Source of the DNA: a virus
Taxonomy: Duplodnaviria > Heunggongvirae > Uroviricota > Caudoviricetes
Length of the DNA: 64,000 bases
Direction: 5' to 3' (one strand)
IMG/VR virus record: IMGVR_UViG_3300035158_000899
Below are positions 5,396 through 64,000 of the stretch, in pieces. The notes below the pieces were generated by a model that saw only the letters and a program-made list of their open reading frames with translations, had not been told where the DNA came from and searched no databases. Position 1 is the first letter of the stretch; each line of letters starts with the position of its first letter. The translations under genes were made by a program, and so were the position numbers.

Positions 5396-5403
5396 GAGGG
5401 TAA

Positions 5404-11490: not shown

Positions 11491-11669
11491 AATCTAGTAT
11501 AGATAAAATAGGAAGTTTTTTAGCTTGGATGAATGCCGGCGGTCAAGTTAGTATGAAATATGGAAACCCAAAACAGGAAGAACGATTTAAAAAGGAATTA
11601 AGTGAAGCTCTTGAAGCATATCTTAGACTTGATGATGCTTTTAGAAAAATGTTTAAACCGAAGAGATAG
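11487..11669 (+). CDS. Small hypothetical protein, paralogue of 33423-33611
   Basis: Shares 'KIG(S/D)FLAWMNAGGQV(S/G)MKY.N' with the ORF at 33423. Confidence 0.5.
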   Translation: MKSSIDKIGSFLAWMNAGGQVSMKYGNPKQEERFKKELSEALEAYLRLDDAFRKMFKPKR

Positions 11670-33422: not shown

Positions 33423-33611
33423 TTGATTGATTATGGAGAGAAGAGTACTAAAGGAGATGAAATGAGCAAGATAGGAGATTTCCTTGCATGGATGAATGCT
33501 GGTGGCCAGGTTGGTATGAAGTATAATAACTTTCGACAGAAAGACATATTTGAGAATAAGCTGATAGATGACCTTGAAGAGTACAATTTGCTTTCAAATG
33601 TTACGAGGTAG
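33423..33611 (+). CDS. Small hypothetical protein, paralogue of 11487-11669
   Basis: 'KIGDFLAWMNAGGQVGMKYNN' motif shared with the ORF at 11487. Confidence 0.5.
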   Translation: MIDYGEKSTKGDEMSKIGDFLAWMNAGGQVGMKYNNFRQKDIFENKLIDDLEEYNLLSNVTR

Positions 33612-40953: not shown

Positions 40954-42156
40954 ATGAAGATATTGCATGCTGCCGATCTTCATTTTGGCATAACACTTTA
41001 CGGTGTCTTAAACAAGAATTCGGGCTTAAATACTAGATTAGAAGATTTTATCAATAGCTTTAATCAGGTTATTGATTATGCTGTTGATAATAAAATTGAT
41101 CTATTTGTTTTTGCTGGTGACGTTTATAAAACGCGTTATCCTACCCCGGTGCTTGAAAAAGTATTCGCTGAATGTGTTTATCGGTTATACAAAAATAAAA
41201 TTCGTACTTATATAGTGCTTGGGAATCATGATTTAAGATTTCAGGAAGATTCGGCGCATGCAGTTTCCGTTATTGAAGAATTGAAGATGCCCTATATTAA
41301 GATTGTTTCCAAACCCCATGCTGAATTATTTGTTTCAGAAAAAGGTGAACAAGCTTATATTGTTGCCGTACCTTATCAGACATATCGTAGTTTAGGTCTA
41401 CGTGATAATATAGAAGCTTCTGCGGTTATTTCAGAAAGTATCAAGCAGATAATCAGTGAATTGCCAAAAGGGAAACCAATTATTGTTGTTAGCCATTTTA
41501 CTGTTGAAGGAACTAAATTACAAAATGTTACCGTTGCTTCGCAGCTTGCACAAGCAGTAAAGGCAGGGTGGTCTAATGAACCTGTAATATCTTTGGATGC
41601 TTTTGATGGAGCGGATTATGTCGCGTTAGGCCATATTCACAAACATCAAGCATGGCGAAGAAACGGAACAATTATTGCGTACAGTGGAGGTATTGACAGA
41701 TGTAAATTTGATGAGCAAGGTGACAAGGGGTTTTTAGTGTATGATACCGATTCCAAACATTTGCAATTCGTTAAGGTGCGATGCAGGGATTTTATTGAGG
41801 TTAAGACTGATTTGACGAATTCAACGAATGTTGTTGAAGATTTACGCAAAAATGTTAAAGCGCATATTAAGCCCAATGCCGTGGTAAAAAATAAGATTTT
41901 AGTTAATGAACGTGATAGATTGTTAATTAATTCACATACAGTTTCTGATTTAATGAAAGAAGTAACTGATGCAGGGTTTGAGGTTGAACCTAAAAAAGAA
42001 GAAAAACAAGAGGATGCGAACGAACAAAAGACCGCAGGAGAGGTTGAATTGTTAAGTTCTTTAGAAAAGTGGTTAAGTTCCAAGCAAGAATTTGTATCAT
42101 ATAAAAAAGAACTTTTAAAAAGAGCAATGCAGTTAAAAGAAAACTTAGGAGGATAG
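40954..42156 (+). CDS. sbcD: SbcD/Mre11-family DNA repair nuclease (T4 gp47-like)
   Basis: N-terminal 'MKILHAADLHFG' and the calcineurin-like phosphoesterase motifs (GDVYK, GNHD, HFTVEG, GHIH). Confidence 0.8.
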   Translation: MKILHAADLHFGITLYGVLNKNSGLNTRLEDFINSFNQVIDYAVDNKIDLFVFAGDVYKTRYPTPVLEKVFAECVYRLYKNKIRTYIVLGNHDLRFQEDSAHAVSVIEELKMPYIKIVSKPHAELFVSEKGEQAYIVAVPYQTYRSLGLRDNIEASAVISESIKQIISELPKGKPIIVVSHFTVEGTKLQNVTVASQLAQAVKAGWSNEPVISLDAFDGADYVALGHIHKHQAWRRNGTIIAYSGGIDRCKFDEQGDKGFLVYDTDSKHLQFVKVRCRDFIEVKTDLTNSTNVVEDLRKNVKAHIKPNAVVKNKILVNERDRLLINSHTVSDLMKEVTDAGFEVEPKKEEKQEDANEQKTAGEVELLSSLEKWLSSKQEFVSYKKELLKRAMQLKENLGG

Positions 42157-43858: not shown

Positions 43859-46024
43859 ATGTTACCGGTTAGCATAAAAGTAAAAGATTTTTTGTCGCAT
43901 AAAGATAGTACGTTAGACTTTAGATTGTTTGATGCAGCGTGCTTGTTAGGTCGCAACGGTGGTGGAAAAAGTACTATGGCCGTTGAAGCAATGAAGTGGG
44001 TTTTGTATAAGAGAGGTCGCTATCAAATTCAAAATAAAATGGTACGCCGCGATGCAAATGAAGCAGTAGTAGAATACGTTTTTCGTATTGATAGCAATAC
44101 TTATCGTACGACAAGAACACAAAATAGAATTAAAGATAAGCAAGACGTCGTGTTAGAAATAGCCAAGAATGGTGGGTGGGATAACATATCTGGATCAACC
44201 ATACCAGAAACAAATCAGAAGATTGTTGAATTGATTGGTTTGGATTATGAAGCATTCACCAATACTGTCGCTTGTGAACAAGACTTAGCCAAAACGTTTT
44301 TTGATAAAACAAATACCGAACGAAAAGAAGTTTTTCAAAGTATTCTACCTTTGAGGGAATGTGAATTGCTTTGTGACGGCGCCAGGGACAAGAGGGATCA
44401 TTATCGTATTAAAGTAGATACCTTGTTAAGCCAATTAGGGAATCTTGAAGATATCAATGCAAACATTTTGCGATTGCAACAAGAAGTTCAACAAATCAAT
44501 AATATTATTGTTCAAGTACAAGAAAGCATTACACAAACGGAATCGGTACTTAAAGATTTAAGAGAAAACCAGAAGCAATACGAATTGGCAATTAATAAAA
44601 GAGAATCGTTAGTAGCAACAAAAAATAAATTAGAATTCCAAATAGAGCAATGCAATGAACAAATTAATGAATCGAAGGAAGCAATAGAAAAACGAAAGCA
44701 AACGCTTATACTTTTACGAGACCAACATATACCATATAAGGAAAAGTATTTGACTTTAGAAGAGCAAACAAAAATTGACATCGATATTTTAAAACAGCAA
44801 TGTGAGACCTTACTTAAAGCAAAAGACACTGAACAAGCGAATAAACGTAAACATGAAGATATATGTAATACACTTAGTGGGCAAATGAAAAATATTGAAA
44901 TGCAAGAAGCTACTATTAAACAATTAAGAGATAAGTGTATTACTTGTGGTAAAACTTGGACTGAAGATGAAAAAAGAGAAGCGCTCAATAATTTTGTCAA
45001 AGAGAGGCAAGAACTATCACGACAAAGGCAAGCAGCTGTTACTAGTATGGCAAGATTTGATAACGTTATTGGTAACATTGATAAAGAGTTACAAGAAGTA
45101 CAAGCGCAAGTTAATGATTATGAAGAGAGAATAAGGGAATTAGAAAGAACAAAGCAAATGCTTATCAAAATTAAAGGTGAGGCAGACGTTGTTAAGAATG
45201 ATATTACTAATGCTGTAAAAAGGTTAGAAGAAAAACAAAATAATTCAATTGCAATAGCTAATGAATTAACAACAGCTACTGCAGAGTTAGATAAATTAGG
45301 TGAAGTCGTTGAAAGGGATTACGCAAAAGATATCAATGATCTAGAATCCGATTTAAGATTACTTCAACAAAAATTAATAGAAGATAATAGCAACAAGGGA
45401 AGGTTAGAAAACGAATTAGCTTCGAATGAACAAAAGAAAAAAGAAACAATAGGGTTACAAAAAGAAATTGATAAGGCAAAACATGAATTAATGCTTTATG
45501 ATATATTAATCACAGGTTTTGGTAAAAATGGGGTTCAATCAGATATAATCAACGAGGCTACACATGATATTAGGTTGTATGCAAATGATTGGTGCAATCG
45601 ATTGTCACACGGGCGTTTTACAATTGATATTAAAACACAAGAGGAAAATAAAACACAAAAAGGAAAGTTTCGCGAAATTTTTGATATTATTGTTAAAGAC
45701 AATGAAGTAAAGAATGGTAACAACGAAATAGAAAGTTGCGGTTTAAGCGGAGGAGAATTATATCAAGTAGCAATGGCTTTGCGTATGGCTTTAAGTACTA
45801 TACTCGCAAATAGGATCGGAACAAAAATAAAATTCCTTTTGATAGACGAGGCCGCAGTTGCATTAGATGATAATGGGGTAGAAGCATTTGCAGATGTAAT
45901 TAATACTTTGAAAGAGCAATTTAAAATATGTGTTGTTAGCCACAGAAAAGATTTACAAGCGTATTTTGAAAATATAATATGGGTGGAAAAAGAGAATGGA
46001 ATTTCGAAACTTATCCAAAATTAA
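43859..46024 (+). CDS. sbcC: SbcC/Rad50-family ATPase (T4 gp46-like)
   Basis: Walker A 'LLGRNGGGKSTM'; long coiled coil with a central CxxC zinc hook ('CITCGK'); ABC signature 'LSGGELYQVAMALRMAL'; Walker B 'FLLIDEAAVALD'. Confidence 0.85.
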   Translation: MLPVSIKVKDFLSHKDSTLDFRLFDAACLLGRNGGGKSTMAVEAMKWVLYKRGRYQIQNKMVRRDANEAVVEYVFRIDSNTYRTTRTQNRIKDKQDVVLEIAKNGGWDNISGSTIPETNQKIVELIGLDYEAFTNTVACEQDLAKTFFDKTNTERKEVFQSILPLRECELLCDGARDKRDHYRIKVDTLLSQLGNLEDINANILRLQQEVQQINNIIVQVQESITQTESVLKDLRENQKQYELAINKRESLVATKNKLEFQIEQCNEQINESKEAIEKRKQTLILLRDQHIPYKEKYLTLEEQTKIDIDILKQQCETLLKAKDTEQANKRKHEDICNTLSGQMKNIEMQEATIKQLRDKCITCGKTWTEDEKREALNNFVKERQELSRQRQAAVTSMARFDNVIGNIDKELQEVQAQVNDYEERIRELERTKQMLIKIKGEADVVKNDITNAVKRLEEKQNNSIAIANELTTATAELDKLGEVVERDYAKDINDLESDLRLLQQKLIEDNSNKGRLENELASNEQKKKETIGLQKEIDKAKHELMLYDILITGFGKNGVQSDIINEATHDIRLYANDWCNRLSHGRFTIDIKTQEENKTQKGKFREIFDIIVKDNEVKNGNNEIESCGLSGGELYQVAMALRMALSTILANRIGTKIKFLLIDEAAVALDDNGVEAFADVINTLKEQFKICVVSHRKDLQAYFENIIWVEKENGISKLIQN

Positions 46025-46941: not shown

Positions 46942-47367
46942 ATGCAATGGCAAAGAGATGATAATTTAAAAAGCATTATTGAAGCTTTAAAAAAAGCATA
47001 TCCAGAATTTAATTATGTTGAATCTGATAAAATAGGTTGTTGTTTCTTTTCAAAGAAACAATCAAAAGCTGCAGCTAAAATAGCAAGGGTTTCCTCCATG
47101 CATTCTCTTTTTATGAATGAAATTTATGTTCTTTGTGTGCATAAAGAATATTGGGATGACGCCAGTGAAAGTTCAAGACTTTATACCATATTGCACGAAT
47201 TAATGCATATACCCAATGAAGGATTTAATCCAGAATCCAAGAGTTACAGGAAGTTGCGTGATCATGATGTTCAAGATTTTCGACATTTATTGAAAACGTA
47301 CGGTATTGATCAAGAAAATGCAAATGAAATAGTTGCAAAGGTGCAAGCCGTAAGAGAAGCAGCGTAG
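46942..47367 (+). CDS. Putative zinc metallopeptidase (HExxH, SprT-like)
   Basis: 'ILHELMHIPNEG...KLRDHD' gives an HExxH motif plus a third His/Asp ligand. Confidence 0.3.
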   Translation: MQWQRDDNLKSIIEALKKAYPEFNYVESDKIGCCFFSKKQSKAAAKIARVSSMHSLFMNEIYVLCVHKEYWDDASESSRLYTILHELMHIPNEGFNPESKSYRKLRDHDVQDFRHLLKTYGIDQENANEIVAKVQAVREAA

Positions 47368-47914: not shown

Positions 47915-48466
47915 GAGATATTTATGAGGAGTGCATATTTGAACAAAAAGGTTTATGGAAAAGAATTGATAATAGATTTACATGATTGTGATCCATCTAC
48001 TTTCAATAGGAAAAGCATTAAGGAGTATTTTGATAAGCTTTGTAAAAAAATAAAAATGAAACAGGAGAAATTAGTTTGGTGGGATGATTATAGAGTTCCA
48101 ATTGAAGAAAGACAAACTAAACCACATCTTAAAGGAACATCGGCTGTACAATTTATAAAAACAAGTAATATTACAATTCATACCTTAGATATTCTTAAAA
48201 AGGCCTACATTAATATTTTTTCCTGTAAAAATTTTAATGAGGATGTTGCTCGTTATTTTACCGAAGATTGGTTTAGAGGAAAAGTTGAAAAATGGAATGT
48301 ATTGGAAAGGGTATAGATGACTAGGCTTAGAATTCAAGAACATATTTATTGTGATAGGATTTGGACAGTTTTTGAGCGCAATTGGTCTTCGTATTTAGAT
48401 CATATAGTTGCAATACTTCTTATTTGTATGTTATTATTAACTTCAAATAAGAAGGAGACTGAAATG

Positions 48467-49465
48467 AATGTAGTTTTTATTGTTCCTACGGGTATAGGAG
48501 CTGAAGTAGGAGGTCATAATGGAGATGCTACACCGGCTGCTAAATTGGTAGCATCACTTTGTGATAATTTTATTACACATCCTAATGTTGTTAATGCTTC
48601 GGATATAAATGAAATGCCTGATAATACATTATATGTTGAAGGCAACATGCTTGATAGGTTTTTGTGTGGTAAGATTGGCTTGAAGAAAGTGAAGTTTAAT
48701 AAGGTCCTTGTGGCTACAAATTCACCTGTTAAACCTGAGATAATAAATTCTGTATCGGCTGCTCGAGCATCTATGGGAATGGATATAGAGATAGTTGCCC
48801 TTGATCCTCCTCTTATTTTAACTGGAAAAATAGAGAATAATCGCGCCGTAGGAAAAGTAGTAGGATGGGAAGGACTTATAAAACAGGTTAGAAAATGTAA
48901 ACCATTTGATGCCTTAGCAATATCATCACCCGTTTTTGTAGACAAAGAAACAAAGATGAATTATTGGAAGAGTGGCGGTGTTAATCCTTTTGGTAGAGCA
49001 GAAGCTCTTGTTTCTAAGCTGGTAGGTGATGCATTAAATGTACCTGTTGCACATGCGCCTTGTGAGTATGTTACAAAAGAGAGTGATCCTGAGGTGTTTT
49101 TCTTTAACCAAGTAGTAGATCCTCGTATGGCTGCTGAACTTGTATCAGTGTCGTATTTGCATTGTGTTTTAAAGGGTTTACATAAGGCTCCACGACCGGT
49201 TGAAGAAGGCGGTTTACGAGTTAGCGATGTAAATTACCTTGTAAGTCCAGTTGGTTGTGTTGGAGAGCCACATCATGCTTGTATGCGGAGAAATATCCCA
49301 ATAATTATGGTTAAAGAAAACAAGACTTGTGAAAATAAGGCTACCCCAGAAGGGGTTACTATTGTTGAAAATTATTTAGAAGCCGCTGGTATGATAGCTT
49401 GTAAAAACGCAGGAGTATATTGGAAAACGGTTAGAAGACCTTTAATAAATACCGTGGTAAGTTGA
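48467..49465 (+). CDS. Conserved hypothetical protein (Gly-rich VPTGIGAEVGGHNGDA N-terminus)
   Basis: Start chosen at the Met preceded by the SD 'aaggagactgaaATG'. The ORF is open from 48317. No assignable catalytic motif. Confidence 0.4.
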   Translation, partial: NVVFIVPTGIGAEVGGHNGDATPAAKLVASLCDNFITHPNVVNASDINEMPDNTLYVEGNMLDRFLCGKIGLKKVKFNKVLVATNSPVKPEIINSVSAARASMGMDIEIVALDPPLILTGKIENNRAVGKVVGWEGLIKQVRKCKPFDALAISSPVFVDKETKMNYWKSGGVNPFGRAEALVSKLVGDALNVPVAHAPCEYVTKESDPEVFFFNQVVDPRMAAELVSVSYLHCVLKGLHKAPRPVEEGGLRVSDVNYLVSPVGCVGEPHHACMRRNIPIIMVKENKTCENKATPEGVTIVENYLEAAGMIACKNAGVYWKTVRRPLINTVVS

Positions 49466-49945: not shown

Positions 49946-50671
49946 ATGTTATATTTGTCTGCTTCTAGAATAAATACTTTTCTCCAGTGCCCACAAAAAT
50001 ATAAGTTTATTTATATCGAAAGACGGCCAACAAAAGCGTGGGCACATTTTGCAGCAGGTAATTTAGCTCATAAGGCTTTAGAAATATTTCATGATGAGAT
50101 TAAAAAAGGTTCGATAGAAGGTTTTCAAGTATTAATGAAAAAGGGTTTTATTGAGGCGCGTAAATCGCATGAAGCTAATGCAGGAGAAGAAAACGTAGCA
50201 AAAATAAAACAAATTTTACAGAATTACATCCACTGGTATGCAGGATTAGAAGAAAAACCAAAGGTGCTAGCATTAGAAAAATCATTTAATTTTAGAATAG
50301 GCAGGTATGGTTGTCGTGGTTTTATCGACAGAATAGATGAAATAGATGCGAACAGTATTAAAATCTCAGATTATAAAACAACTTCAGATGAAAAGTACCT
50401 TAAAGATCCTTTGCAATTGGGTATATATCATTTAGCAATGGCCAATAATGATTTTAGGGGTAAGAAAATTATTACCGCATATATATTGTTGAAGCACAAT
50501 TTTAAAGAAATCACGCATGAATTTTCTGAAAAAGAAGTCTTAGAATTTCAAAAAAGGATTATTGAAATTGGGGATGCGATAGAAAAAGAGGTAGAATTCA
50601 AAGCTAAGCCTGGTCCCTTGTGTCAAAAATGGTGCGAGTTCAGGCCGATTTGTTCAGCAATGAAATGGTAA
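49946..50671 (+). CDS. PD-(D/E)xK nuclease of the RecB/Cas4 type with C-terminal Cys cluster
   Basis: 'SASRINTFLQCPQKYKF', 'GFIDRIDE...IKISDYKT' (D...D/ExK), 'Y' motif, and C-terminal 'CQKWCEFRPIC' typical of Cas4-like Fe-S nucleases. Confidence 0.65.
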   Translation: MLYLSASRINTFLQCPQKYKFIYIERRPTKAWAHFAAGNLAHKALEIFHDEIKKGSIEGFQVLMKKGFIEARKSHEANAGEENVAKIKQILQNYIHWYAGLEEKPKVLALEKSFNFRIGRYGCRGFIDRIDEIDANSIKISDYKTTSDEKYLKDPLQLGIYHLAMANNDFRGKKIITAYILLKHNFKEITHEFSEKEVLEFQKRIIEIGDAIEKEVEFKAKPGPLCQKWCEFRPICSAMKW

Positions 50672-50758: not shown

Positions 50759-51850
50759 ATGTATCAAGAAAAACATATGGAAGGTTTTTATTTTTTGGAA
50801 GATATCAGTCAAGGAAAAAGATATGCTAAAGTAAGACAAACGCTTGAGATTGATGATAAGATGCAATGTGAATCTGATATAATCAGAGATGTCGAAGTTA
50901 TAAATGGAGCAGAAGTTACAACCGATACAGCCATAGAAAAAATTGTCCTTAAAGACACAGGTAAAACAATTTCAGCCAAAAAAAGAAGTAGACAAGTTGG
51001 AATCAAAATTACTTCGAATATTAACGGCGATTTAGTTTTTGTAAATTCGTGGACGGGTCGAGGAATTGATAAGGTGATGAAGGCATTGGAGAAAGTTATT
51101 AAGTATCGGGCAGGCAAGGTATATAATATCACCATTTATGGAGATGAAAGACAAGACGTGGAACAACAATTGAGACTTTACGCAATAGATTGTGTTAAAA
51201 GATATGATCCCACTAAAGGTACTGCAATGTTAACATTTCTTACTGGTCATGTTATCAAGCAAGAGTATTCATTAATAAAGCAAGCTTTTTCCGAAAAACG
51301 TGCACCAACAATACACAATGTGATACAAAAAAGAATTTACAAGTGCCCTGAATGTTCTGAAGAGGTTGTTGTAGAATGTGATTATCAAAGTAAGGAAAGA
51401 AAAAGGATACCAGAAAGATTAGCGTGCAGTACTTGTGGCACAGGTTTTGACACTCCAAAAATACCAATTAGAAAAGTTGGGGTCTTTTTAAATCAAAAAC
51501 CAGTTTCTTTAGACAAAATAATAAGTGGGTTTGAGAACGAAGGGATGAGGACAGTCAGTGAAACAGTCGTAGGCGATGATGGTAGTTGGGCTGATGATAT
51601 TTTGTTTGATTGGGATATTAAAATGGCAGCGAAGAAATTGAGAGAAAAGGGTAAAGCAACAGAGGCGATGGTTTTAGAAATGATAAATGAAGGCTTATCA
51701 AAGGATGACATTAGAAGAAGACTAGGTAAAATGAAATATGGTGGCGATGAAAATAAGTATTCAACTACTGGTGTCGAAAACGCCTTTAAGAGATTGCGCA
51801 GGAATCCTTTGATTAATGCGATCTTTGATAAGGAGTTAGCAAATGGATAG
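50759..51850 (+). CDS. Hypothetical protein with sigma-70 region-2-like segment and zinc ribbon (possible phage sigma/transcription factor)
   Basis: 'RLYAIDCVKRYDPTKGTAMLTFLTGHVIKQEYSLI' resembles sigma region 2.1-2.2 (kFDp.kG..fsTYa.wwIrq). 'CPECSEE...CSTCG' zinc ribbon follows. Confidence 0.3.
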   Translation: MYQEKHMEGFYFLEDISQGKRYAKVRQTLEIDDKMQCESDIIRDVEVINGAEVTTDTAIEKIVLKDTGKTISAKKRSRQVGIKITSNINGDLVFVNSWTGRGIDKVMKALEKVIKYRAGKVYNITIYGDERQDVEQQLRLYAIDCVKRYDPTKGTAMLTFLTGHVIKQEYSLIKQAFSEKRAPTIHNVIQKRIYKCPECSEEVVVECDYQSKERKRIPERLACSTCGTGFDTPKIPIRKVGVFLNQKPVSLDKIISGFENEGMRTVSETVVGDDGSWADDILFDWDIKMAAKKLREKGKATEAMVLEMINEGLSKDDIRRRLGKMKYGGDENKYSTTGVENAFKRLRRNPLINAIFDKELANG

Positions 51851-54266
51851 TAATGAATTATTGTTGAATTATCAAAAGCGTTTAGAAGATTCTAGATATC
51901 GCACTAAGTTTTTTAAGGATTTAGCAGGCGATGATGAAACATCTTATTTTAAAACGCTTTTGGCTACAGAGCAAAATATAGGTGAACAATTAGTAAAGCG
52001 TGCTGATAGGTTGCAACGCTTAATAAAATTAGGTCAAGTACCCGAAGAAGAGCCTGGAGAAAAGCCCGAAGAAGAGTTAGGGGTTGAGGATGAAGAAGTA
52101 GAAGTAGAACAAATTGAAGAAGAGATAGTAGAAGAACCAGAAAAAAAAGAAATAACTGATGAGGAAATTATAGATTTTAATACAGGCGATAATGCTAAGG
52201 ATTGGCAAGACTATAAAAATTATGTTCAGAATGTGTTGAAAGTAGATTTGCGAAGTAAAACAGTAGCCCCTGATAGTCCTTATGCTCCAGCAATTAATTT
52301 AACAGGTTACACTGATAGTGAAGGTAAACGTCATCCTGGCTTGGTAGAACGTTTTGGTTTTGGTAGGGTTATGGAACCAATCATAATTAAGTACTCACCT
52401 TTAATTGGTGGAGTAGCAGGAAGAGCCATGGATGAAAGATATACATTGCAATTTCCAGGAACAAGCCCTGTAGAACGACAAGCCGAAATGTTTCAAATAC
52501 TTGCTACACGCATGCTAGAAAAGATGAAAACTTACGATCCCAAAAAAGGTACCGTGGGTGGCAGAATGTCAAAGAAAGTAGTAGAGCAAGAATTTTGGAA
52601 TGCTACGAGATTAAGAGAAAAAGCTACTAATTTATATAAAGATCTCGTGTGCCCTTTTTGCAGACAACCTAATACAGCTATAGGAGAAGAAACGAAGTTA
52701 CCAGAAGAATATATATTAGACAATCCTGATCATAACGTTTGGCCTCCTTTTAAGGGTAGTAAAGAGCCTGAAGAAAACAAACAGAAGTGGCTTGAGGTGC
52801 TTAAAGAAGAAGGTGAAATTGAAATGTTTTTGTGTCCAGTATGTGGAAATTTCTTTAGGGATGGAGATCAAGTCACAAAAACAACCGCTGTTGCCCCTGT
52901 TTCTTTAGAAGCACCAATACCAGGGCAAGAAGCAGAAGAAGCAGTTTTCGAAGAAGTAATAGAAGATCCGAAGACAAGAACACCAGGAGAAGCAAGTGAA
53001 GAATTGAAAAGACTTGTTTCTCGTACTGCTACTGAAAGGATTGCAAAAGATGTAAAAAGGATGTTGCTTTATAGAGCCGATGGTTGTAGATTCGATGAAA
53101 AAGAAAGCAAGCTCCGTGAGTTAAAAGGCAGATTGGGAAAAGCTGAGAAATACAACAAGGGTAGTGATTTTTATAAGGTTTTAAAAGGTTATAATATAAA
53201 TGAAGAATTAATTAACGAATTTCAATCTGGTTTAGTAGATGGTATAGCAGATGAAATGGCAGCACAACAGAGTGAGGAAGCGCTACAAGAAATAAGAAGT
53301 AGGAATGAAAAGTTTGTCAGTGATATGGTAAGTAGGATATTTGCGGAAGAAACAGATGCACAATTAACTCAAGATAAACTTGATAAAATTAAATTAGCTG
53401 CAAAAGCTTACATGGAAGGGTTTAAAGAGTTTCGTGAATTAATGAGAAGTAAGGGTAGATGTGCTAAAAACATCAATTGGCTTTACCGTAATCCTTGTTT
53501 TGGGTTATATAAAGATGAAGAAGGTAAGAGCAAAATATGCGAAGGCTATGAAGCAGTAGAATTTAGTAGTGCAGAAAGAATGAGAGCAAGAAAATATTTG
53601 CTAACAGCACAAGCTTTTATTATGGTTTCGGCAGCGGTTATAGAAAAGAAGAAAAGAGGTAAGCATTATAGAGATATAAAGAAATTAGCGAATGAAGCTA
53701 TTGCACAGCAAAATAAAGAACTTGAAGCAAGGAATATGGAACGTAGAAAATTAGGTAAAGAACCAATACCACTTATTGAACCTTGGACTGGCGGGTATGA
53801 TGTTGTAAGTGTACAGGGTGTTAAGAATGCTTTAGTGAAAACAATTATACCTCTCTTTAAGATGAAACCTGTGGAACAAATTGAAGGCATAACAGGTATG
53901 ACTTACGATGAAGCATTAACTATGTATTTAGAAGAACTTGAGGATTTAGCAACAGATAGAGGCACTGATATAAAAGAATTGGACTGGCAAGCATTTAAAG
54001 GTAACCCGGGAGCAATTAGAAAACATGTAGAGTTTTTTGGCAAGGAACAATCAAGTGAACGTTTGGGAAGAATGAGAGAGTTAGCCATATTAGCAAGAGA
54101 AGGTGACGAAGAAGCTATTCATACTCTTAGAAGATTGTTTGGGGATAATGAAAAAGTAAAAGAAATAATGAAACAAGAAACAGAAAGGGAGGGTGCGTGT
54201 CAGACATTTCTTACGAAATCCAGTCAGCGCCAACGGAGATCAAGATTGTTGAAGGTGCGAATGTAA
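51843..54266 (+). CDS. Large hypothetical protein (807 aa) with acidic N-terminal tract, a paralogous 'YDPKKGT' sigma-region-2-like segment and zinc ribbon
   Basis: 'ILATRMLEKMKTYDPKKGTVGGRMSKKVVEQEF' followed by 'CPFCRQ'/'CPVCGN' parallels the upstream ORF. EEPGEKPEEELGVEDEEVEVEQIEEEIVEEPE low-complexity region. Confidence 0.3.
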   Translation: MDSNELLLNYQKRLEDSRYRTKFFKDLAGDDETSYFKTLLATEQNIGEQLVKRADRLQRLIKLGQVPEEEPGEKPEEELGVEDEEVEVEQIEEEIVEEPEKKEITDEEIIDFNTGDNAKDWQDYKNYVQNVLKVDLRSKTVAPDSPYAPAINLTGYTDSEGKRHPGLVERFGFGRVMEPIIIKYSPLIGGVAGRAMDERYTLQFPGTSPVERQAEMFQILATRMLEKMKTYDPKKGTVGGRMSKKVVEQEFWNATRLREKATNLYKDLVCPFCRQPNTAIGEETKLPEEYILDNPDHNVWPPFKGSKEPEENKQKWLEVLKEEGEIEMFLCPVCGNFFRDGDQVTKTTAVAPVSLEAPIPGQEAEEAVFEEVIEDPKTRTPGEASEELKRLVSRTATERIAKDVKRMLLYRADGCRFDEKESKLRELKGRLGKAEKYNKGSDFYKVLKGYNINEELINEFQSGLVDGIADEMAAQQSEEALQEIRSRNEKFVSDMVSRIFAEETDAQLTQDKLDKIKLAAKAYMEGFKEFRELMRSKGRCAKNINWLYRNPCFGLYKDEEGKSKICEGYEAVEFSSAERMRARKYLLTAQAFIMVSAAVIEKKKRGKHYRDIKKLANEAIAQQNKELEARNMERRKLGKEPIPLIEPWTGGYDVVSVQGVKNALVKTIIPLFKMKPVEQIEGITGMTYDEALTMYLEELEDLATDRGTDIKELDWQAFKGNPGAIRKHVEFFGKEQSSERLGRMRELAILAREGDEEAIHTLRRLFGDNEKVKEIMKQETEREGACQTFLTKSSQRQRRSRLLKVRM

Positions 54267-55456
54267 TAAAGGAAAAGAAAGAGAAATATTGGGATTCTAT
54301 TAAAAAGGATATTGAATTACCAGGTTTCAGAAAAGGCCATGTCGATAGAAAAACATATGAAAATAAAGTAGGTTATTTTAATTTATACCATCCCATCGTA
54401 GATGATGTAGTCTTTAGTGCTCTCGAATCAATAAAAGATTTTAGAATTGTTTGTGTTTTAGAAAAGAAAGTTGTTCAATTTTTTGATGACATACCTCTCA
54501 TTGTTAAAGTTTTGGTAGATACAAGGCCAAATGTCAAAATAACAGGTAACTATAAAAATATTGAAATCGAAGTACCCAAAATAAAAGTTATCGATGAGGA
54601 AGTAGATCGTCGTATCAATTCTCTTGTTTATTCAAAGACTCCTGCCAAGCCAATAACTGATAGGCCCACCCAAAAAGGCGATTCCATTAAGATTGATTAC
54701 AAAGGGTTTATAGTCGAGGATAATGCTTGGAGACCATTAGCAGGTTACGAAGCTAAAAATGTGAATTTAGTTTTAGGCAACAATCGCTTAAGTATTATAC
54801 CAGATATTGAAGAGTCAATCGTTGGGATGAAGAAAGATGAGATAAAGACCATTGAGGGAACAATACAAGAAAAACGCGGTAAAGTCGAGGTATGTTTAAA
54901 AGAAATATCAATTAGAGAATTGCCGGAAATCAATGACGAATTAGCGAAGCAATATAAATTCACATCATTGGAAGATATGAAGAGTAAGACAAGAGATGAG
55001 TTAGCACAATTTAAAAAAGCACAAATAGAAGTTGACAAACAAGGAAAGATTATCGATGCGTTGATTAAAGATTGTGAATTTGATTCAATACCAAAGTCAA
55101 TGGTAAGAATGCAAATAGAATCTGCGCTGCAATCAGAATGTAAAAATTTCGGCATGGACGTGAAGAAATTTTTAGAGACAATGAAAATTACCAGGGCTGC
55201 TTATGAAGAAGACCGGTTTGAAGATGCACTACGGCTTGTTAAAGCAAGACTTGCATTAGAAGAATTAGCAGAAAGGGAAAAGATTGGTTGTACAGATGAG
55301 GAGATTGAAAAAGAAATGGGCGAAAATGCGAAGAAGGCCGGTGTTAAACTTGAAGAATACAAGAATAGAGTGAATAAAGATGGTATTGGTAATGATTTGA
55401 AGGTCGGTAAAGCGTTACTTTATTTGAAAGAAAGTGTGAGGTATAAGGAGGTTTAA
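54197..55456 (+). CDS. tig: Trigger factor (ribosome-associated chaperone / FKBP-type PPIase) homologue
   Basis: N-terminal ribosome-binding signature 'LPGFRKGHV' (GFRxGxxP), FKBP region 'VDYKGFIVEDNAW...LVLGNNRLSIIPDIEESIVGMKKDEIKTIEG', and 'IRELPEINDELAKQY' align with E. coli Tig over its full length. Confidence 0.75.
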   Translation: MSDISYEIQSAPTEIKIVEGANVIKEKKEKYWDSIKKDIELPGFRKGHVDRKTYENKVGYFNLYHPIVDDVVFSALESIKDFRIVCVLEKKVVQFFDDIPLIVKVLVDTRPNVKITGNYKNIEIEVPKIKVIDEEVDRRINSLVYSKTPAKPITDRPTQKGDSIKIDYKGFIVEDNAWRPLAGYEAKNVNLVLGNNRLSIIPDIEESIVGMKKDEIKTIEGTIQEKRGKVEVCLKEISIRELPEINDELAKQYKFTSLEDMKSKTRDELAQFKKAQIEVDKQGKIIDALIKDCEFDSIPKSMVRMQIESALQSECKNFGMDVKKFLETMKITRAAYEEDRFEDALRLVKARLALEELAEREKIGCTDEEIEKEMGENAKKAGVKLEEYKNRVNKDGIGNDLKVGKALLYLKESVRYKEV

Positions 55457-56473
55457 TTGATAAAGTTTGGGTCACATCCTTTTCCTGACTTTGACTCAAT
55501 TGTATCCACGTGGCTGTATAAAAGGTTTGTTATAAAAGATGAAGAATACGAATTTTTTATAACAGGCAATGATAAATTAAAAGACGAAGCAGTATTAATC
55601 GATATAGGATTAGGTGAATACGATCATCATCAGTATATAGGCGAATGTAGTAATTGTAACCATCCAATAGAAATACCACATAAAAACCAAATTTGCCCTC
55701 ACTGTAATGAAGTAAAATTAACAAACGCTAATATTGATTTAATCAGCGCCGCACATGTTATAGCAAAAAAACATAGTTTGGATTTTCTTGGTTGCGATAA
55801 TTTGGCAATACGAGCAAATCAAGTAGATAGTGTTATGGTTAATAATATGAAGCCGGGTGATTTGTTTTATGTTATTAGAGGTTTGAATGAAATTTATTCT
55901 CATGGATTTAAAAAAGTATATGAAATTGTATGGAAGATTTTAGATAAAATGCATGAGAAAGGTTATTTTGTTGACGACAAATATGAAGTTGATAACAAAG
56001 TACTGTCCGGACACGAGGACATAGAAGTTATAGAAAAAGCGATAGATACAGGTGCCGAAAAAGAAGCGCAAGTGAAAATTTTAGTAGAAAATTCGTATAA
56101 ATTCACGGCTTTGTTAGAAACAGAAAATGGTAAGAAAGTAAGTGTTCCTGCACTCGCAGCAGAAACAGATTTGAACATGAGTTATAGTTCTCATGGTAAA
56201 GATTTTGTTTTGTATGTTTATAAAAACCCAAGTAATGGCATAGCAGGCTATAACAGTAGAAATCCGGGCAAAGGTGACTTAGGCATACCAGAAGTTGATT
56301 TAACAAATATATACAATACTATTAAAACGATCGAACCAAATGAACGCGCCGAATGGTATTTACATTGGTCAAAGAGGTTACTGTTGTGTGGAAGCAAAAA
56401 AAGAGATTTTGGAAAAGAAAAAGCAACTGAATTATCTTTACAACAACTCATAGAATTGGTGAAGAAAAAATGA
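55457..56473 (+). CDS. DHH-family phosphoesterase (NrnA/GdpP-like) with inserted zinc ribbon
   Basis: 'FGSHPFPDFDSIVSTWL' (H..PD.D..S motifs I-II) and 'LIDIGLGEYDHHQ' (DHH motif III); 'CSNCNH...CPHCNE' ribbon insertion. Confidence 0.5.
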   Translation: MIKFGSHPFPDFDSIVSTWLYKRFVIKDEEYEFFITGNDKLKDEAVLIDIGLGEYDHHQYIGECSNCNHPIEIPHKNQICPHCNEVKLTNANIDLISAAHVIAKKHSLDFLGCDNLAIRANQVDSVMVNNMKPGDLFYVIRGLNEIYSHGFKKVYEIVWKILDKMHEKGYFVDDKYEVDNKVLSGHEDIEVIEKAIDTGAEKEAQVKILVENSYKFTALLETENGKKVSVPALAAETDLNMSYSSHGKDFVLYVYKNPSNGIAGYNSRNPGKGDLGIPEVDLTNIYNTIKTIEPNERAEWYLHWSKRLLLCGSKKRDFGKEKATELSLQQLIELVKKK

Positions 56474-56830: not shown

Positions 56831-58171
56831 ATGAAAACGACAATGAATAAAAATACCTGTTATATTTTTGGAAGATGGCTGGGTGATGGTAGTAAAACAA
56901 CAAATGCATTAGAAATTGCGAGAAGTAATAATAATTATGAAAAAAAAAATATGGAACAAATAGCGGTTATGCTTAATACTACATATAAACATTGTAATAA
57001 TTATAGTACAAGATTTCATAGACAACAAAAATTAGTCAATCAATTTAAAATTCTATATAATGTTATAAGCGAGATTCACAATTTTTCTTTTTTAAAATTT
57101 TCAATAAATAGATATTCAATTATAGCAGGTTTTCTTGATTCTGACGGCAGCGTAGATATTCACACGCCAAATGAAACTGGAATAAGCAGTAAAAAAATAA
57201 ATATTGTATTTTATAATAATAATTCGCAAATTTTATATTTTATACAAAGATTGCTGCAGATAGACAACATAACATCAACATATAGTAAATCGTATAATTT
57301 AAAAACAAATGTGGGAACAGATAAATGCAACAGGTTATACATACACGGAAGCTTAGATAATTATTTTATAGCATATAAAATATTACCACATATGTTATGC
57401 AATTTTAAGAAAAAGAGATTACAACAATGGACTCGTGATTACGATCGTTTTTATCAAAAAAAGAAAATAAATATTACCGAAATTTTTCATAGTATAGAAG
57501 GTGAGGGACGCAGAATTGGAGAACCTATTACATTTATAAGAGTATACGGCTGCCCGCATAAATGTTCGTTTTGTGATACCAAATATTCTGTGTGTAAGAG
57601 CAGAAGTACGAGATCAAAACATAGCAGGGATTTAAAAATTGTAATCAATGATATTATTAAATTAGGTAACGTTCAAAATATCGAATTTACAGGAGGTTCC
57701 CCAGATTGGTTCCCAGCAAAAATTGGTTATCTATTGATATATTTTAAAGCACGGTATAACAGTAACATAACTATGCAAGTTAGTGGAGGCATTAAAACAG
57801 ATAAGAGCAATAGATTATTTAAATTGTCTACGTTAAACGCATTTGATTATAAGGACCCAAGGGAGAATATTCCATTCGTTATCGAACCTGAATTGATTCG
57901 TTCACAGGATGAAATTAAATTTTTAATAAAAGATAATTTTAGTTACAATTTTGTAAAAAAGAAGATCCAGGAATTGCAAGCTATTGGTATAAATTGTAAA
58001 ATGATAATAACAACTGTAACAAATAATGGCAACGATATTGTTACAGATCATTTAGAAAAATTGAAAAAATTAACAGAAAAAATATTAACAGATGCAAATT
58101 TTCCTAAAGAAAATGTTAAAATTGCCCCCAGGGAACACGTATTATTATGGGGAAATAAAAAAGGTGTATAG
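56831..58171 (+). CDS. queE: 7-carboxy-7-deazaguanine synthase QueE (radical SAM) carrying an in-frame N-terminal double-motif LAGLIDADG homing-endonuclease domain
   Basis: Residues about 215-446: 'EIFHSIEGEGRRIGEPITFIRVYGCPHKCSFCDTKYS' matches the QueE N-terminus with the Cx3Cx2C cluster. Residues 1-214: 'YIFGRWLGDGS' and 'IIAGFLDSDGSV' LAGLIDADG motifs about 90 aa apart in an extremely AT-rich, Asn/Lys-rich segment. Confidence 0.7.
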   Translation: MKTTMNKNTCYIFGRWLGDGSKTTNALEIARSNNNYEKKNMEQIAVMLNTTYKHCNNYSTRFHRQQKLVNQFKILYNVISEIHNFSFLKFSINRYSIIAGFLDSDGSVDIHTPNETGISSKKINIVFYNNNSQILYFIQRLLQIDNITSTYSKSYNLKTNVGTDKCNRLYIHGSLDNYFIAYKILPHMLCNFKKKRLQQWTRDYDRFYQKKKINITEIFHSIEGEGRRIGEPITFIRVYGCPHKCSFCDTKYSVCKSRSTRSKHSRDLKIVINDIIKLGNVQNIEFTGGSPDWFPAKIGYLLIYFKARYNSNITMQVSGGIKTDKSNRLFKLSTLNAFDYKDPRENIPFVIEPELIRSQDEIKFLIKDNFSYNFVKKKIQELQAIGINCKMIITTVTNNGNDIVTDHLEKLKKLTEKILTDANFPKENVKIAPREHVLLWGNKKGV

Positions 58172-58366: not shown

Positions 58367-59050
58367 ATGATGAAATCAGTAGTGTGTCTTAGTGGCGGCA
58401 TGGACAGTGCAACCATGTTGTGGAGGGCAGCGACAGAAAATGGTGAACTGCACGTAATATCTTTTGATTACAATCAACGTCACAAAATAGAATTGGAGTA
58501 TGCTAAAAAATTATGCGGTAGAGTCAGGAAAGTAGTTGAGCATAAAATAATCAATATAGATATGTCTCAAATAGGTGGTAGCCCTTTAACAGATAAGAGT
58601 ATTGATGTACCAAAAGCTTCTGATAAACAACAGATTAAAACAGTTCAACCGTTTAGAAACACTTTATTCACAGTTCTTGCAGCAGCATATGCTGAAGTTA
58701 ACAGTATTGACACAATTTATCTTTCACCAGTACAGGAAGATTATTTGGCATATCGTGACTGTAGGAAAGAATTTTTTACAGCGTTAGAGCATACTTTAAG
58801 TTTGGGCAGTACATATCCAATTGATTTTCATATAAAGACGCCCTATATTTTTAAAACAAAAAAAGAAGTTTTAGAAGATGGGTTACGCATGGGTGTACCT
58901 TATGAACTTACTTATACTTGTTATGAAGGCGACCCGCAAGGGTTTTGTGGTGAATGTGATGCCTGTAAAGAGCGTATAGATGCTTTTAAACAGATTAGCC
59001 AAAAAGATCCTGCTAAGTATTTGAGGGAGATAGAATGGGAAGATCAATGA
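58367..59050 (+). CDS. queC: 7-cyano-7-deazaguanine (preQ0) synthase QueC
   Basis: 'SVVCLSGGMDSATMLW' PP-loop, 'ISFDYNQRHKIELEYAKKL', and C-terminal Zn site 'CGECDACKERIDAF'. Confidence 0.85.
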   Translation: MMKSVVCLSGGMDSATMLWRAATENGELHVISFDYNQRHKIELEYAKKLCGRVRKVVEHKIINIDMSQIGGSPLTDKSIDVPKASDKQQIKTVQPFRNTLFTVLAAAYAEVNSIDTIYLSPVQEDYLAYRDCRKEFFTALEHTLSLGSTYPIDFHIKTPYIFKTKKEVLEDGLRMGVPYELTYTCYEGDPQGFCGECDACKERIDAFKQISQKDPAKYLREIEWEDQ

Positions 59051-59429: not shown

Positions 59430-60750
59430 TCCGCATTTCTATTAATAGTTTGTTTTTTAACAATCTATTAATAAATATATATAATAAAAATAGATAACGC
59501 TATTATTGATTGATAAAGGTATATTGTGCAGAGAGTAGAACGTCATATAGTTTTAAACAATAGGAATATAGAAAAGCTGTGTACCCTTTCTAAAAACCTT
59601 TATAATGTGGGTAATTATAACATCAGGCAGGAGTTTATAAACAATGGTAATTGGTTGAGATATCAACAATTAGATAAATTACTTAAGGAAACTAAAGATT
59701 ATAAAGCGCTTTCTGCACAAGTAGCTCAACAAGTATTAAGGCTTCTGGATAAAAATTGGATATCATTTTTTGAAGCAAATAAGAGATATAATAGGGATTC
59801 AAAAAAATTTAGAAGCAGACCTAAGTTGCCAAGGTATAAAAATAAAAATACAGGGAAAAATATGGTTGTCTTTACTAAACAAGATGCTAGACTAAAAAAT
59901 GGATTTATTTGTTTCCCAAAAAAAGTTAACCTTGAACCTTTAAAAACAAAAGTAAATAATATTTGTCAAGTTAGAATTGTGCCACAAGCAGTTTGTTATG
60001 TTATTGAAGTTGTTTACAATAAGGAGGCCAAAAATGTAAAATTACAACCGAACACTTATTTGAGTATTGATCTAGGTGTCAATAATTTTGCTACATGTGT
60101 TAACAACATAGGTTTAAAACCTTTTGTTGTAAATGGTAAGATATTAAAATCTATTAATCAATATTTTAATAAGAAAAAAGCTAGGCTAATGTCTTATGTA
60201 AAAGATAAGGGTACTTCTAATAAGGTTGACAAATTGATACATAAACGAAATTGCAAAGTACAAGATTATCTCCATAAGACTTCGAGGTTTATAGTTAATT
60301 ATTGTATTGCGTATAAAATAGGTGTTATTATTGTTGGTAAAAATAAAGATTGGAAGCAAGAAATTGATATGGGAAAAAAGAACAATCAAAATTTTGTTTC
60401 AATACCTTTTGACACTTTAGTAAAACAAATACGGTATAAGGCTGAAGAAGCAGGAATTAAGATAGCTGTTAGTGAAGAATCTTATACTTCTAAATGCAGT
60501 TTTTTAGATTTTGAAAAGGTCAAAAAACAAGTTGAATATTTAGGTAAAAGAATTAAGAGAGGGTTATTTAGGTCAGCGGAAGGTATTTTGATAAATGCAG
60601 ATGTTAATTCTGCTTATAATATTTTAAAAAAAGTAGTTCCAAATGCATTTGCAAATGGAATAGAGGGTGTAGGGTTACATCCAATTGTAATACAATTACA
60701 ATAAAAGATAACCTTAATAATAGTATATTTATCGACAAGGACTTAGCGAT
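59430..60750 (+). mobile_element. IS200/IS605-family insertion sequence of the TnpB-only (IS1341-like) type
   Basis: Contains only a TnpB ORF. The flanking AT-rich ends carry palindromic 'tctattaata(g)' motifs on the left (x2) and 'ttaataatag' on the right. Exact boundaries are uncertain. Confidence 0.6.
59526..60704 (+). CDS. tnpB: IS605 OrfB / TnpB RuvC-like RNA-guided nuclease family protein
   Basis: N-terminal 'NLYNVGNYNIRQEF' helix-turn-helix region, RuvC-I 'LSIDLGVNNFATCV', C-terminal 'NADVNSAYNILKKV' (RuvC-III). The usual CxxC...CxxC zinc finger appears degenerate (a single Cys). Confidence 0.85.
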   Translation: MQRVERHIVLNNRNIEKLCTLSKNLYNVGNYNIRQEFINNGNWLRYQQLDKLLKETKDYKALSAQVAQQVLRLLDKNWISFFEANKRYNRDSKKFRSRPKLPRYKNKNTGKNMVVFTKQDARLKNGFICFPKKVNLEPLKTKVNNICQVRIVPQAVCYVIEVVYNKEAKNVKLQPNTYLSIDLGVNNFATCVNNIGLKPFVVNGKILKSINQYFNKKKARLMSYVKDKGTSNKVDKLIHKRNCKVQDYLHKTSRFIVNYCIAYKIGVIIVGKNKDWKQEIDMGKKNNQNFVSIPFDTLVKQIRYKAEEAGIKIAVSEESYTSKCSFLDFEKVKKQVEYLGKRIKRGLFRSAEGILINADVNSAYNILKKVVPNAFANGIEGVGLHPIVIQLQ

Positions 60751-63652: not shown

Positions 63653-64000
63653 AATGTTTAAAGCAGCGGTTGAAACAATTAAAAAAGAATTGCCCCCGAA
63701 ACACAAAGCAGTTGTTGATAAAATAAAAGAAACCGCGAAAGAATTAGGTATTAAAGCATATATCGCCGGTGGTTATGTTCGAGATTTGATTTTAGATAAG
63801 CCAAGTGAAGATATTGATATAATGTGTGAAAGAGATGCTGTTAAGTTAGTTCAAGCTTTAGTTAAAAAACATGCTTTGTCAACACCTGTTACATATGGAA
63901 GATCTCAAGCGATAGCAGTAGTATTGGATGGTTATCCTATTGATTTCATTGATGCAGAAAAAGTAATTTCACCAGTTGGTGGAACGCTTGAAGGTAGAGA
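63653..64000 (+). CDS. tRNA nucleotidyltransferase (CCA-adding) / poly(A) polymerase family protein, N-terminal part (3' end outside the window)
   Basis: 'AYIAGGYVRDLILDKPSEDIDIMCE' is the GG.VRD...G....D.D head-domain signature of class II CCA-adding enzymes. SD 'aaggagggg' upstream. Confidence 0.6.

Follow-up and report, generated by a model that had tools for sequence, protein, structure and literature searches.

Does a tailed phage encode its own trigger factor (TF) and, if so, what might the protein do during infection? The question is raised by an open reading frame (ORF) of 419 amino acids (aa) at positions 54197-55456 of a 64,000-nucleotide (nt) stretch of the IMG/VR virus record IMGVR_UViG_3300035158_000899 (Caudoviricetes). 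We refer to this whole stretch as the window, and all its features described below lie on the + strand. We found that the ORF is a real, genuine and highly divergent full-length TF homologue. Judging from the sequence comparisons below, it is not an orphan but most likely part of a small clade of TFs that large uncultured phages of one lineage have passed on by descent. As to its role, we consider it reasonably probable that the protein is a holdase without peptidyl-prolyl isomerase (PPIase) activity, docked on the ribosome and serving nascent chains of the phage.

The gene begins with a GTG codon. We accepted this start, despite a 70-nt overlap with the upstream ORF, because a Shine-Dalgarno-like GGGAGGG (54187-54193) precedes it at a spacing of 3 nt and because the TF signature then falls on G43-F44-R45, a numbering identical to that of E. 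coli Tig. Three Pfam domains were found in the canonical N-FKBP-C order, all above their curated gathering cut-offs: Trigger_N at aa 13-143 (54233-54625; E 4e-17, 63.2 bits vs a cut-off of 22.2), FKBP_C at aa 157-228 (54665-54880; E 9e-6, 26.3 bits vs 21.1, profile positions 4-72 of 94) and Trigger_C at aa 257-411 (54965-55429; E 4e-22, 79.4 bits vs 22.7, profile positions 1-161 of 162). The NCBIfam equivalog TIGR00115 'tig' matched aa 18-406 with profile positions 8-405 of 410 (217.8 bits vs 180.2). Hence the similarity extends to Trigger_N and Trigger_C and is not confined to a generic FKBP domain, the outcome that the initial annotation had named as fatal to its proposal. The same gene is already automatically named 'trigger factor' (P0001) on the 117,056-bp Joint Genome Institute (JGI) contig that contains the window.

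The predicted structure agrees with the profiles. An AlphaFold2 (AF2) model built on a 31-sequence alignment reached a mean predicted local distance difference test (pLDDT) score of 89.4 and a predicted template modelling (pTM) score of 0.69, with no segment below a pLDDT of 50. The model and the Foldseek comparison recover the elongated TF fold with its tail, head and two-armed C-terminal cradle, the arms domain being all-helical (pLDDT 90-96). Foldseek ranked full-length TFs first among PDB entries, namely 3GTY of T. maritima (1e-22) and two E. coli entries, 1W26 (2e-20) and the ribosome-bound 2VRH (2.5e-20), each aligned across about 430 columns; chloroplast TIG1 came next, and then isolated PPIase and N-domains of TFs (1OMS and 2AAR for the N-domains). 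TM-scores against the full-length TFs were 0.47-0.55, with root-mean-square deviations of 9-12 Å, which falls short of a tight global superposition and which we attribute to inter-domain angles that probably differ, or are flexible, in the model. Considering profiles, fold and length together, the claim of a full-length TF with all three Tig regions in 419 aa is borne out.

The divergence of this protein is considerable. Its identity to E. coli TF is 22%, and no other protein in either of our database searches exceeds 33%. A phmmer search of PDB recovered only the TFs of T. maritima, V. cholerae and D. radiodurans (best E 1.6e-13) and did not recover E. coli TF at E 1e-3, which shows how strongly the window TF has diverged. 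Compared with bacterial Tig (E. coli 1W26/2VRH, T. maritima 3GTY), it shares the domain order, a similar length, the overall fold and GFRKG at E. coli numbering, but differs by a Pro50 to Asp replacement, IPDIE instead of IPGFE, a 9-residue deletion that includes Y221/H222, an F233 to V substitution, the lack of a tig-clpP-clpX operon and a phage-like carrier.

A word-indexed search of 5.8 billion proteins returned only bacterial TFs, the best of which (P0002) sits in a classic tig-clpP-clpX-lon locus. Searching 1.84 billion cluster representatives exhaustively with HMMER yielded 8,727 matches, and here TFs from phage-like contigs were among the best; these best matches share with the window TF the N-terminal pattern W..K....L.GFRKG..PR..AE...G...LY. 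In a neighbour-joining (NJ) tree of 158 TFs, the window TF falls into a 17-member clade with TFs from phage-like contigs (P0121, P0123, P0124, P0126-P0128, P0131, P0136, P0140, P0144, P0157, P0164, P0167, P0171, P0181 and P0245), with P0181 as its nearest neighbour. Of 100 bootstraps, 47 reproduced this exact clade, and 93 placed the window TF in a clade of at most 30 taxa together with at least five of seven core members, these being five members whose phage-like context was checked, P0131, which was assigned through an IMG/VR viral contig, and P0140, whose context was not looked up. Moreover, a hidden Markov model (HMM) of the 16 other clade members scored the window TF at 306 bits, compared with 251±11 bits (maximum 268) for size-matched random bacterial HMMs and 284 bits for an HMM of all 141 bacterial-type TF cluster representatives that served as our reference set.

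Gene order agrees with this in part. The contexts of clade TFs that we examined, on contigs of up to 153 kb, are one-stranded, consist mostly of ORFs without a Pfam family and resemble one another. In the relatives, SbcC is followed at some distance by a PDDEXK nuclease, a large ORF (525-985 aa), often an AAA_18 ORF, the TF, an ORF of 76-87 aa, DnaE and dCTP deaminase. On all longer contigs of the relatives this large ORF lies upstream of the TF, and the window has an ORF of 807 aa (51843-54266) in this place, its end overlapping the TF start in another frame. Neither the AAA_18 ORF nor the small downstream ORF nor DnaE was found near the window TF. Upstream, the window carries a DnaG-type CHC2 zinc-finger (primase) ORF (40087-40677; Pfam Zn_ribbon_DnaG, E 5e-18), an SbcD/gp47-like nuclease (40954-42156; Pfam Metallophos, PHROG 100), an SbcC/gp46-like ATPase (43859-46024; PHROG 77, E 5.7e-70) and a PD-(D/E)XK, Cas4-like exonuclease (49946-50671; Pfam PDDEXK_1, E 1.6e-31). 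By BLASTP, the SbcC-like protein matches ORFs of contigs L006 and L015 at E 1e-53 to 1e-58, and the exonuclease is 27-33% identical to equivalently placed ORFs of L006, L009, L012 and L015.

The same order is found on a contig filed as viral, UViG_3300014913_000022 of IMG/VR, whose TF is P0131. In the 40 kb that we read, this contig is collinear with the window (primase zinc finger, SbcD, SbcC, PDDEXK nuclease, TF; 26-32% identity), its ORFs 4207-4797 and 4775-5950 matching the primase zinc-finger and SbcD-like proteins at E 2e-20 and E 1e-53, respectively. It begins with GroES and a full-length GroEL (positions 79-2205, L030; PHROG 5725, E 5.6e-150) and hence carries three chaperone genes with its TF. 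Around the nearest neighbour P0181 we found genes for QueE, GTP cyclohydrolase, DNA methylases, a dNMP kinase, an intein-bearing DnaE and a homologue (L021/L022) of PhageMetallopep, a putative phage metallopeptidase also encoded in the window (46942-47367; Pfam 63.7 bits vs 23.7). A further look at 14 IMG/VR loci with relatives of a 263-aa radical-SAM-like protein of UViG_3300014913_000022 revealed no TF within the DNA examined.

Within this clade, the different parts of the protein have not fared alike. The mean pairwise identity of the N domain is 31% both among the bacterial representatives and among the phage clade, and that of the C domain 28% and 26%, respectively. The PPIase domain, on the other hand, stands at 43% among the bacterial representatives and 30% in the phage clade. 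The head is thus the most conserved TF domain in bacteria, and this extra constraint is gone in the phage clade, whereas the level of the ribosome-binding domain is unchanged.

The TF signature loop of the window protein reads GFRKGHVD (aa 43-50, 54323-54346), and the GFRKG motif reported by the initial annotation is indeed present at aa 43-47 (54323-54337). Residues G43, F44, R45 and G47 are 100% conserved in the bacterial reference set and are all kept in the window TF, as is K46. The protein therefore has the G-F-R-x-G core but lacks the full GFRxGxxP signature, since position 50 is Asp, where the bacterial set has P in 94%, S in 4% and T in 2% (together ~100%, n=141). It also displays the degenerate GxRxG motif used as a working criterion by Wan et al. 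2024, who noted GFRKGKxx variants in some Clostridia (PMC11559001).

The head tells the opposite. Its sequence is shortened, and IPDIE (aa 201-205, 54797-54811) replaces the bacterial IPGFE, whose residues are found in 74% (I), 82% (P), 80% (G), 90% (F) and 90% (E) of the bacterial representatives. In E. coli numbering, F198 is replaced by I, F217 by I, P218 by Q and F233 by V, and a 9-residue gap removes positions 220-228 with Y221 and H222, so that the set F198, Y221, F233 and IPGFE expected of an intact PPIase pocket is missing. In PMC7804408, F198A in TF is cited as abolishing PPIase activity; an 'F198A' statement in PMC7353009 was discarded as evidence on TF, as that mutation belongs to FklB. 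The IPGFE motif also varies elsewhere in the clade (IPAFE, IEGFE, IAGFE, LPDFE, FGFIE), and in P0181 FKBP_C no longer scores at all. From these residues we infer that the head of the window TF is probably catalytically inactive and that isomerase activity is unlikely. The 'FKBP-like PPIase domain' of the initial annotation thus holds for the fold, since the FKBP-like β-sheet is retained in the AF2 model, and not for the catalytic pocket, which is degenerate. PPIase activity, and even the head domain itself, is dispensable for the chaperone function of TF in vivo. Therefore, loss of the pocket is compatible with a working chaperone and with membership of the family.

Taken together, these observations lead us to favour the ribosome-docked, isomerase-inactive holdase. 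The TF would be made during infection from a long rightward transcription unit, and its GFRKG loop would dock it on the host ribosome beside the exit tunnel, at the site formed by L23/L29 in the case of bacterial TF. There, the cradle of the N-terminal domain and the C-terminal 'arms' may shield emerging phage polypeptides as an ATP-independent holdase, while the FKBP-like head would be kept as a structural or auxiliary binding module, its prolyl-isomerase activity being most likely lost. The intact ORF, the confident fold and the bacterial-level conservation of the N domain are what we count as evidence of selection for function.

Several observations weigh against this model. The last residue of the docking signature, a Pro conserved in 94% of bacterial TFs, is replaced in the window TF. 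The GFR core is altered in 4 of the 16 other clade members, with GIEKG in P0181, GFEEG in P0164, GYKKG in P0245 and GFRPE in the fourth, and the list thus includes the nearest tree neighbour; ribosome docking would then not be universally needed in the clade. The branches are long, at about 1.5-1.7 substitutions per site to everything, so the grouping itself may owe something to long-branch attraction. Furthermore, Pfam and PHROGs revealed no capsid, terminase, portal or tail gene in the 64-kb window, a search that covers 64 kb of the 117,056-bp source contig, and no virion gene appeared in the 40 kb read of UViG_3300014913_000022. Host TF is abundant, and it is not evident why a phage would have to add to this activity. 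Finally, overproduction of an N-terminally complete TF harms cells (PMC11559001), which fits a part in host takeover as well as a helper role.

The alternative that survives best, although we regard it as rather unlikely, is that the protein works off the ribosome, as a cytosolic holdase or assembly factor for large phage proteins such as the one encoded upstream, docking being secondary or lost. The missing GFR motif in several clade members, P0181 included, and the replacement of Pro50 would be readily explained in this way. Likewise, the crystal structure of T. maritima TF, the closest solved relative by sequence, contains ribosomal protein S7 as an assembly client (3GTY), a large ORF (525-985 aa in the relatives, 807 aa in the window) always precedes the TF, and a TF carried by the Hodor megaplasmid has been proposed as a chaperone of giant proteins (PMC12934698). 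On the other hand, G43, F44, R45, K46 and G47 are intact in the window TF, and the N domain of the clade is as conserved as that of bacteria, which argues for continued constraint at the very part that docks. Neither is homology between the upstream large ORFs and the 807-aa ORF established. The latter has no Pfam or PHROG match, and when it and a neighbouring 363-aa ORF (50759-51850) were compared with the large ORFs of the relatives, only a short Zn-ribbon/VSLDxP motif aligned, with weak hhalign support (probability 32-45%, E ~2-5e-4; 32% for the 807-aa ORF). We also noted the motif C..CG..F(D)....VSL(D/E).PI, which is common to the 363-aa and 807-aa ORFs and to the large ORFs of L004, L006, L009, L012 and L015.

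A different idea, which we consider decidedly unlikely, is that the TF is a tool of host takeover that competes with host TF, signal recognition particle, peptide deformylase/methionine aminopeptidase or SecA, or that simply raises the TF dose, and thereby throttles or reshapes host protein synthesis and secretion. TF is described as the sole ribosome-associated chaperone of bacteria; virtually all bacteria keep just one copy with a complete N terminus, additional ones being harmful, and an excess of such a TF lowers protein output and alters the proteome (PMC11559001). The window TF is N-terminally complete and has the GFRKG loop. In addition, its gene lies among replication, recombination and anti-defence genes of an early or middle type, and not among structural genes. 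However, throttling would hit phage translation as well, since both draw on one pool of ribosomes. The client-binding domain at the C terminus shows good conservation and a confident fold, as in a working chaperone, and the presence of GroES/GroEL alongside the TF of a relative suggests a role in folding.

A bolder form of the docked-chaperone model borrows from this idea. It supposes that a lineage of large phages has kept its own ribosome-docking TF with an inactive head, and that this protein takes the place of host TF at the exit tunnel, by displacement or by competition, breaking the 'one complete TF per cell' dosage rule and either favouring phage chains or throttling host translation and secretion. 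We put this forward tentatively, as a speculation that is rather improbable as it stands.

The roles considered so far presuppose that the gene belongs to a phage. Could the window instead derive from a bacterial chromosome, a plasmid or a megaplasmid, or be a chimeric assembly, its TF gene being a cellular or plasmid tig? The lack of virion genes in the window and in its IMG/VR relative would fit such an origin, TFs do occur on plasmids and megaplasmids (PMC11559001, PMC12934698), and many 'phage' TFs in databases are host DNA. Nevertheless, we find this very unlikely, as the architecture of the window points elsewhere. Its 122 non-nested ORFs all lie on one strand, cover 95% of the DNA and average ~166 aa, most of them without a family match; on the minus strand, ORFs occur only nested within those of the + strand. 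The GC content is 30-40%, mostly 33-36%, and the GC skew is strongly positive throughout. We detected no tRNA gene and, among the Pfam and PHROG matches, no ribosomal-protein, Sec, sortase, conjugation or plasmid-replication family, rRNA genes not having been searched for. These scans covered the window ORFs of at least 45 aa after overlap filtering, with only one library for each of two minor fragmentary gene models (3-713, PHROGs; 48317-49465, Pfam).

The genes that do have a family are of the kind expected in a phage. In replication, recombination and repair we found SbcD/SbcC, the Cas4-like PD-(D/E)XK nuclease, the DnaG zinc finger, RuvB and RNase HII; there are two SLT transglycosylases and one Amidase_3 as cell-wall enzymes, and the nucleotide-related genes comprise QueC, QueE behind a LAGLIDADG domain and nicotinamide adenine dinucleotide (NAD) salvage genes. 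Together with the GroES-like gene, the MoxR/VWA pair, a TnpB element, PhageMetallopep and an Apyc1-like anti-Pycsar protein of the metallo-beta-lactamase fold (17796-18551; Pfam Anti-Pycsar_Apyc1, 98.4 bits vs 50), which is likely a phage anti-defence enzyme degrading cyclic-nucleotide signals, this gene content is typical of large lytic phages. Megablast of 19 kb of window DNA against INPHARED gave no match. By tblastn, neither ClpP nor ClpX was found in the window or in contigs L006, L012, L015 and L021, and the typical tig-clpP/clpX context is thus absent. No cellular TF among the 5.8 billion proteins searched exceeds 33% identity to the window TF, and the window is collinear with a contig filed as viral. 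Considering gene content, architecture and synteny, we draw the strong inference that the window is part of a phage genome. The initial statement that the TF is 'encoded by the phage' is thus supported in part, by these three lines, with the reservation that no virion gene accompanies it within 64 kb.

That caution is needed with TFs in phage collections is illustrated by our own searches. The window TF found 26 matches in INPHARED by tblastn, at 30% identity or less. We inspected four, and rejected them as phage TFs: all come from UNVERIFIED records and three of the four have clpX or clpP/clpX beside tig. Low-identity IMG/VR matches from a scan with the clade alignment were likewise rejected, four of the five having clpP beside tig, and two of these clpX too. 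ClpP/ClpX were located beside tig by tblastn in loci L016-L019 and L025-L027. Bacterial tig with clpP and/or clpX, 55-79% identical to bacterial proteins, is thus found in INPHARED MT835572.1, MT835536.1 and OR844993.1 and in IMG/VR UViG_3300005882_000426, _3300029337_000223, _3300021956_000468 and _3300037528_000385. A clpP/clpX neighbour of tig in such records identifies bacterial chromosomal DNA. Counted together, the nine matches checked in INPHARED and IMG/VR, which include the five best-ranked ones below the TF of UViG_3300014913_000022 (three from INPHARED, two from IMG/VR), comprise eight with clpX or clpP/clpX as neighbours and one that is nearer to bacterial TFs. In the metagenome scan with the clade alignment, among the matches listed, 67 of 80 loci had clpP/clpX, and none of the 80 favoured the phage clade over bacterial TFs. 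Absence of clpP/clpX beside a TF gene may thus serve as a quick filter for genuine phage copies. The window TF also matches phrog_26774 (PHROGs v4, 'unknown function') at E 5e-33. We rejected this as a phage TF family: E. coli Tig matches it end to end at 2e-121 and clade TFs reach 90-217 bits, so it is a bacterial-type TF profile, probably derived from host DNA in prophage records.

Least of all do we believe in a functionless, host-captured passenger drifting to loss, for although the branch is very long, the PPIase motif degenerate and Pro50 lost, the 419-codon ORF is uninterrupted and has a strong Shine-Dalgarno sequence, all three domains exceed curated cut-offs with a high-confidence AF2 fold, and the gene and its order are kept across relatives only 25-33% identical, which requires long-term purifying selection.

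The junctions of the TF gene are tight on both sides, with the 70-nt overlap upstream and, downstream, a 338-aa ORF (55457-56473) whose TTG start is the base right after the TF stop. This suggests translational coupling. Around the gene, predicted promoters and terminators were no more numerous than in shuffled sequence, and from 49.5 to 59.5 kb the + strand has no terminator-like site (a scan not above chance); we think that the TF is probably co-transcribed with its neighbours. The 338-aa ORF has no significant Pfam, PHROG or PDB sequence match, its single-sequence AF2 model reached a pLDDT of only 31, and it has no homology to the small ORF found behind the TF in relatives. The latter, an ORF of 76-87 aa without a Pfam family, is present in most relatives, often overlaps the TF gene and is conserved at BLASTP E 1e-5 to 1e-13 (L003 1810-2046, L004 4717-4980, L006 11328-11558, L009 4209-4688, L012 11250-11501). 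In L009 it forms the C-terminal part of a 159-aa ORF, and no counterpart is detectable in the window. Upstream, the 363-aa ORF displays weak sigma-factor-like and Zn-ribbon similarity (PHROG 351 'RNA polymerase sigma factor', E 3.7e-5; Pfam Sigma70_r2, E 0.0075, below cut-off).

The initial annotation also pointed to a GroES/gp31-like gene and a MoxR/VWA pair, which it read together with the TF as the phage's own co-translational folding machinery. These genes are present as described: a GroES/Cpn10-like co-chaperonin, a possible second chaperone gene (11131-11490; Pfam Cpn10, E 7e-14; PHROG 3188), a MoxR-type AAA+ ATPase (8258-9268; AAA_5 and CbbQ_C) and its partner, a CobT-type VWA protein (12056-13771; Pfam CobT_C, E 2.5e-19; PHROG 1576). 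Their grouping into one machinery finds indirect support in UViG_3300014913_000022, where GroES and GroEL accompany a clade TF. Against it, the genes lie ~40-46 kb from the TF, MoxR/VWA is not a co-translational system, and tblastn with the GroEL of that relative found no GroEL in the window (best E 0.84), which leaves the Cpn10 without a Cpn60 partner there.

Other parts of the window are of independent interest. A QueE-like radical-SAM ORF (56831-58171) matches PHROG 2076 at aa 210-446 and has a LAGLIDADG homing-endonuclease domain at aa 97-178, an arrangement that could be a fusion or an intein-like insertion. QueC follows downstream (58367-59050), and the two genes suggest 7-deazaguanine DNA modification. 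Further along lies a TnpB/Cas12f-like gene (59526-60704; OrfB_IS605 and TNB), to which a 93-aa ORF just upstream of the P0181 TF (L021 1485-1766, L022 3921-4202) is 52% identical over 50 residues. A NAD-related set comprises a QRPTase_N ORF (25860-26984), NadE (27714-28571) and an isochorismatase-domain ORF (29191-29835) that may be a nicotinamidase; it resembles the systems for NAD+ synthesis that have been reported from jumbo phages of the gut (PMC11662467).

The window also encodes a full-length RuvB (15607-16602; RuvB_N, AAA lid and RuvB_C, E 5e-37) and an RNase HII (23562-24212). RuvB in particular appears to be an uncommon, cellular-type gene for a phage. We further noted by eye three pairs of small paralogous ORFs: 11487-11669 and 33423-33611, with the motif G(S/D)FLAWMNAGGQV; the tandem 'DFVTNSS' proteins 5024-5395 and 5404-5763; and the basic proteins 4018-4356 and 7034-7426, with similar cores. 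The right edge of the window cuts an ORF (63654-64000) with a PolyA_pol head domain of the CCA-adding enzyme/poly(A) polymerase family (E 1.9e-6) and the left edge cuts a radical-SAM/SPASM ORF, so the source contig continues on both sides. A metagenome scan with the right-edge ORF gave no match, and neither did a scan of IMG/VR with the window TF.

How does the window TF relate to systems already described? Its nearest mobile-element precedent is the TF of the Hodor conjugative megaplasmid (bioRxiv 2026, PMC12934698), which likewise resides on a mobile element and has been proposed to serve the large proteins of that element. There, the TF gene shares a transcript with that of a class B sortase and has genes for SecY/SecG/SecE and giant secreted proteins as neighbours (PMC12934698). 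The window differs in having no Sec, sortase or conjugation gene in its 64 kb and in placing the TF in a replication/recombination module; the two were compared by context, not by sequence. Phage chaperonins (T4 gp31/GroES-like proteins, phage GroEL, PHROGs 3188 and 5725) provide a second likeness, as homologues of folding factors supplied by a phage, the window having a Cpn10-like gene and its relative GroES, GroEL and TF. The chaperones known from phages belong to this chaperonin class; TF is of a different one, being an ATP-independent, ribosome-associated holdase.

A third parallel is with diverged additional members of the TF family under altered domain constraints, namely the extra TFs of Myxococcus (PMC11559001) and plant Tig2 (PMC11731035). 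The extra copies of bacteria are devoid of the ribosome-binding N-domain according to PMC11559001, and plant Tig2 is described as truncated (PMC11731035). In the window TF, the three domains and the GFRKG loop are all present, and it is the PPIase pocket that has degenerated. As for viruses, full-text literature searches found no description of a phage-encoded TF, and a viral metagenome study had no TF analogue among its viral proteins (PMC8407431). Since, in addition, the matches that we checked in phage collections proved bacterial, the initial view that a phage-encoded TF is rare appears well founded. The TF family itself is known; what is new is the carrier and the pattern: large uncultured phages share a syntenic TF clade in which the head is relaxed and at least one member is accompanied by GroES/GroEL.

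Altogether, phages of this clade appear to supply their own co-translational chaperone. A conserved and syntenic clade of phage TFs implies that some phages would act on protein biogenesis from its very first step, at the ribosome itself. The clade is also a natural experiment on the functions of TF, with docking loop and cradle kept and the isomerase pocket relaxed, and the loss of the docking motif in some members indicates that ribosome docking itself varies across it. If the bolder proposal of competition with host TF at the exit tunnel were true, this would be the first virus-encoded co-translational chaperone and would add a new layer to the takeover of the ribosome.

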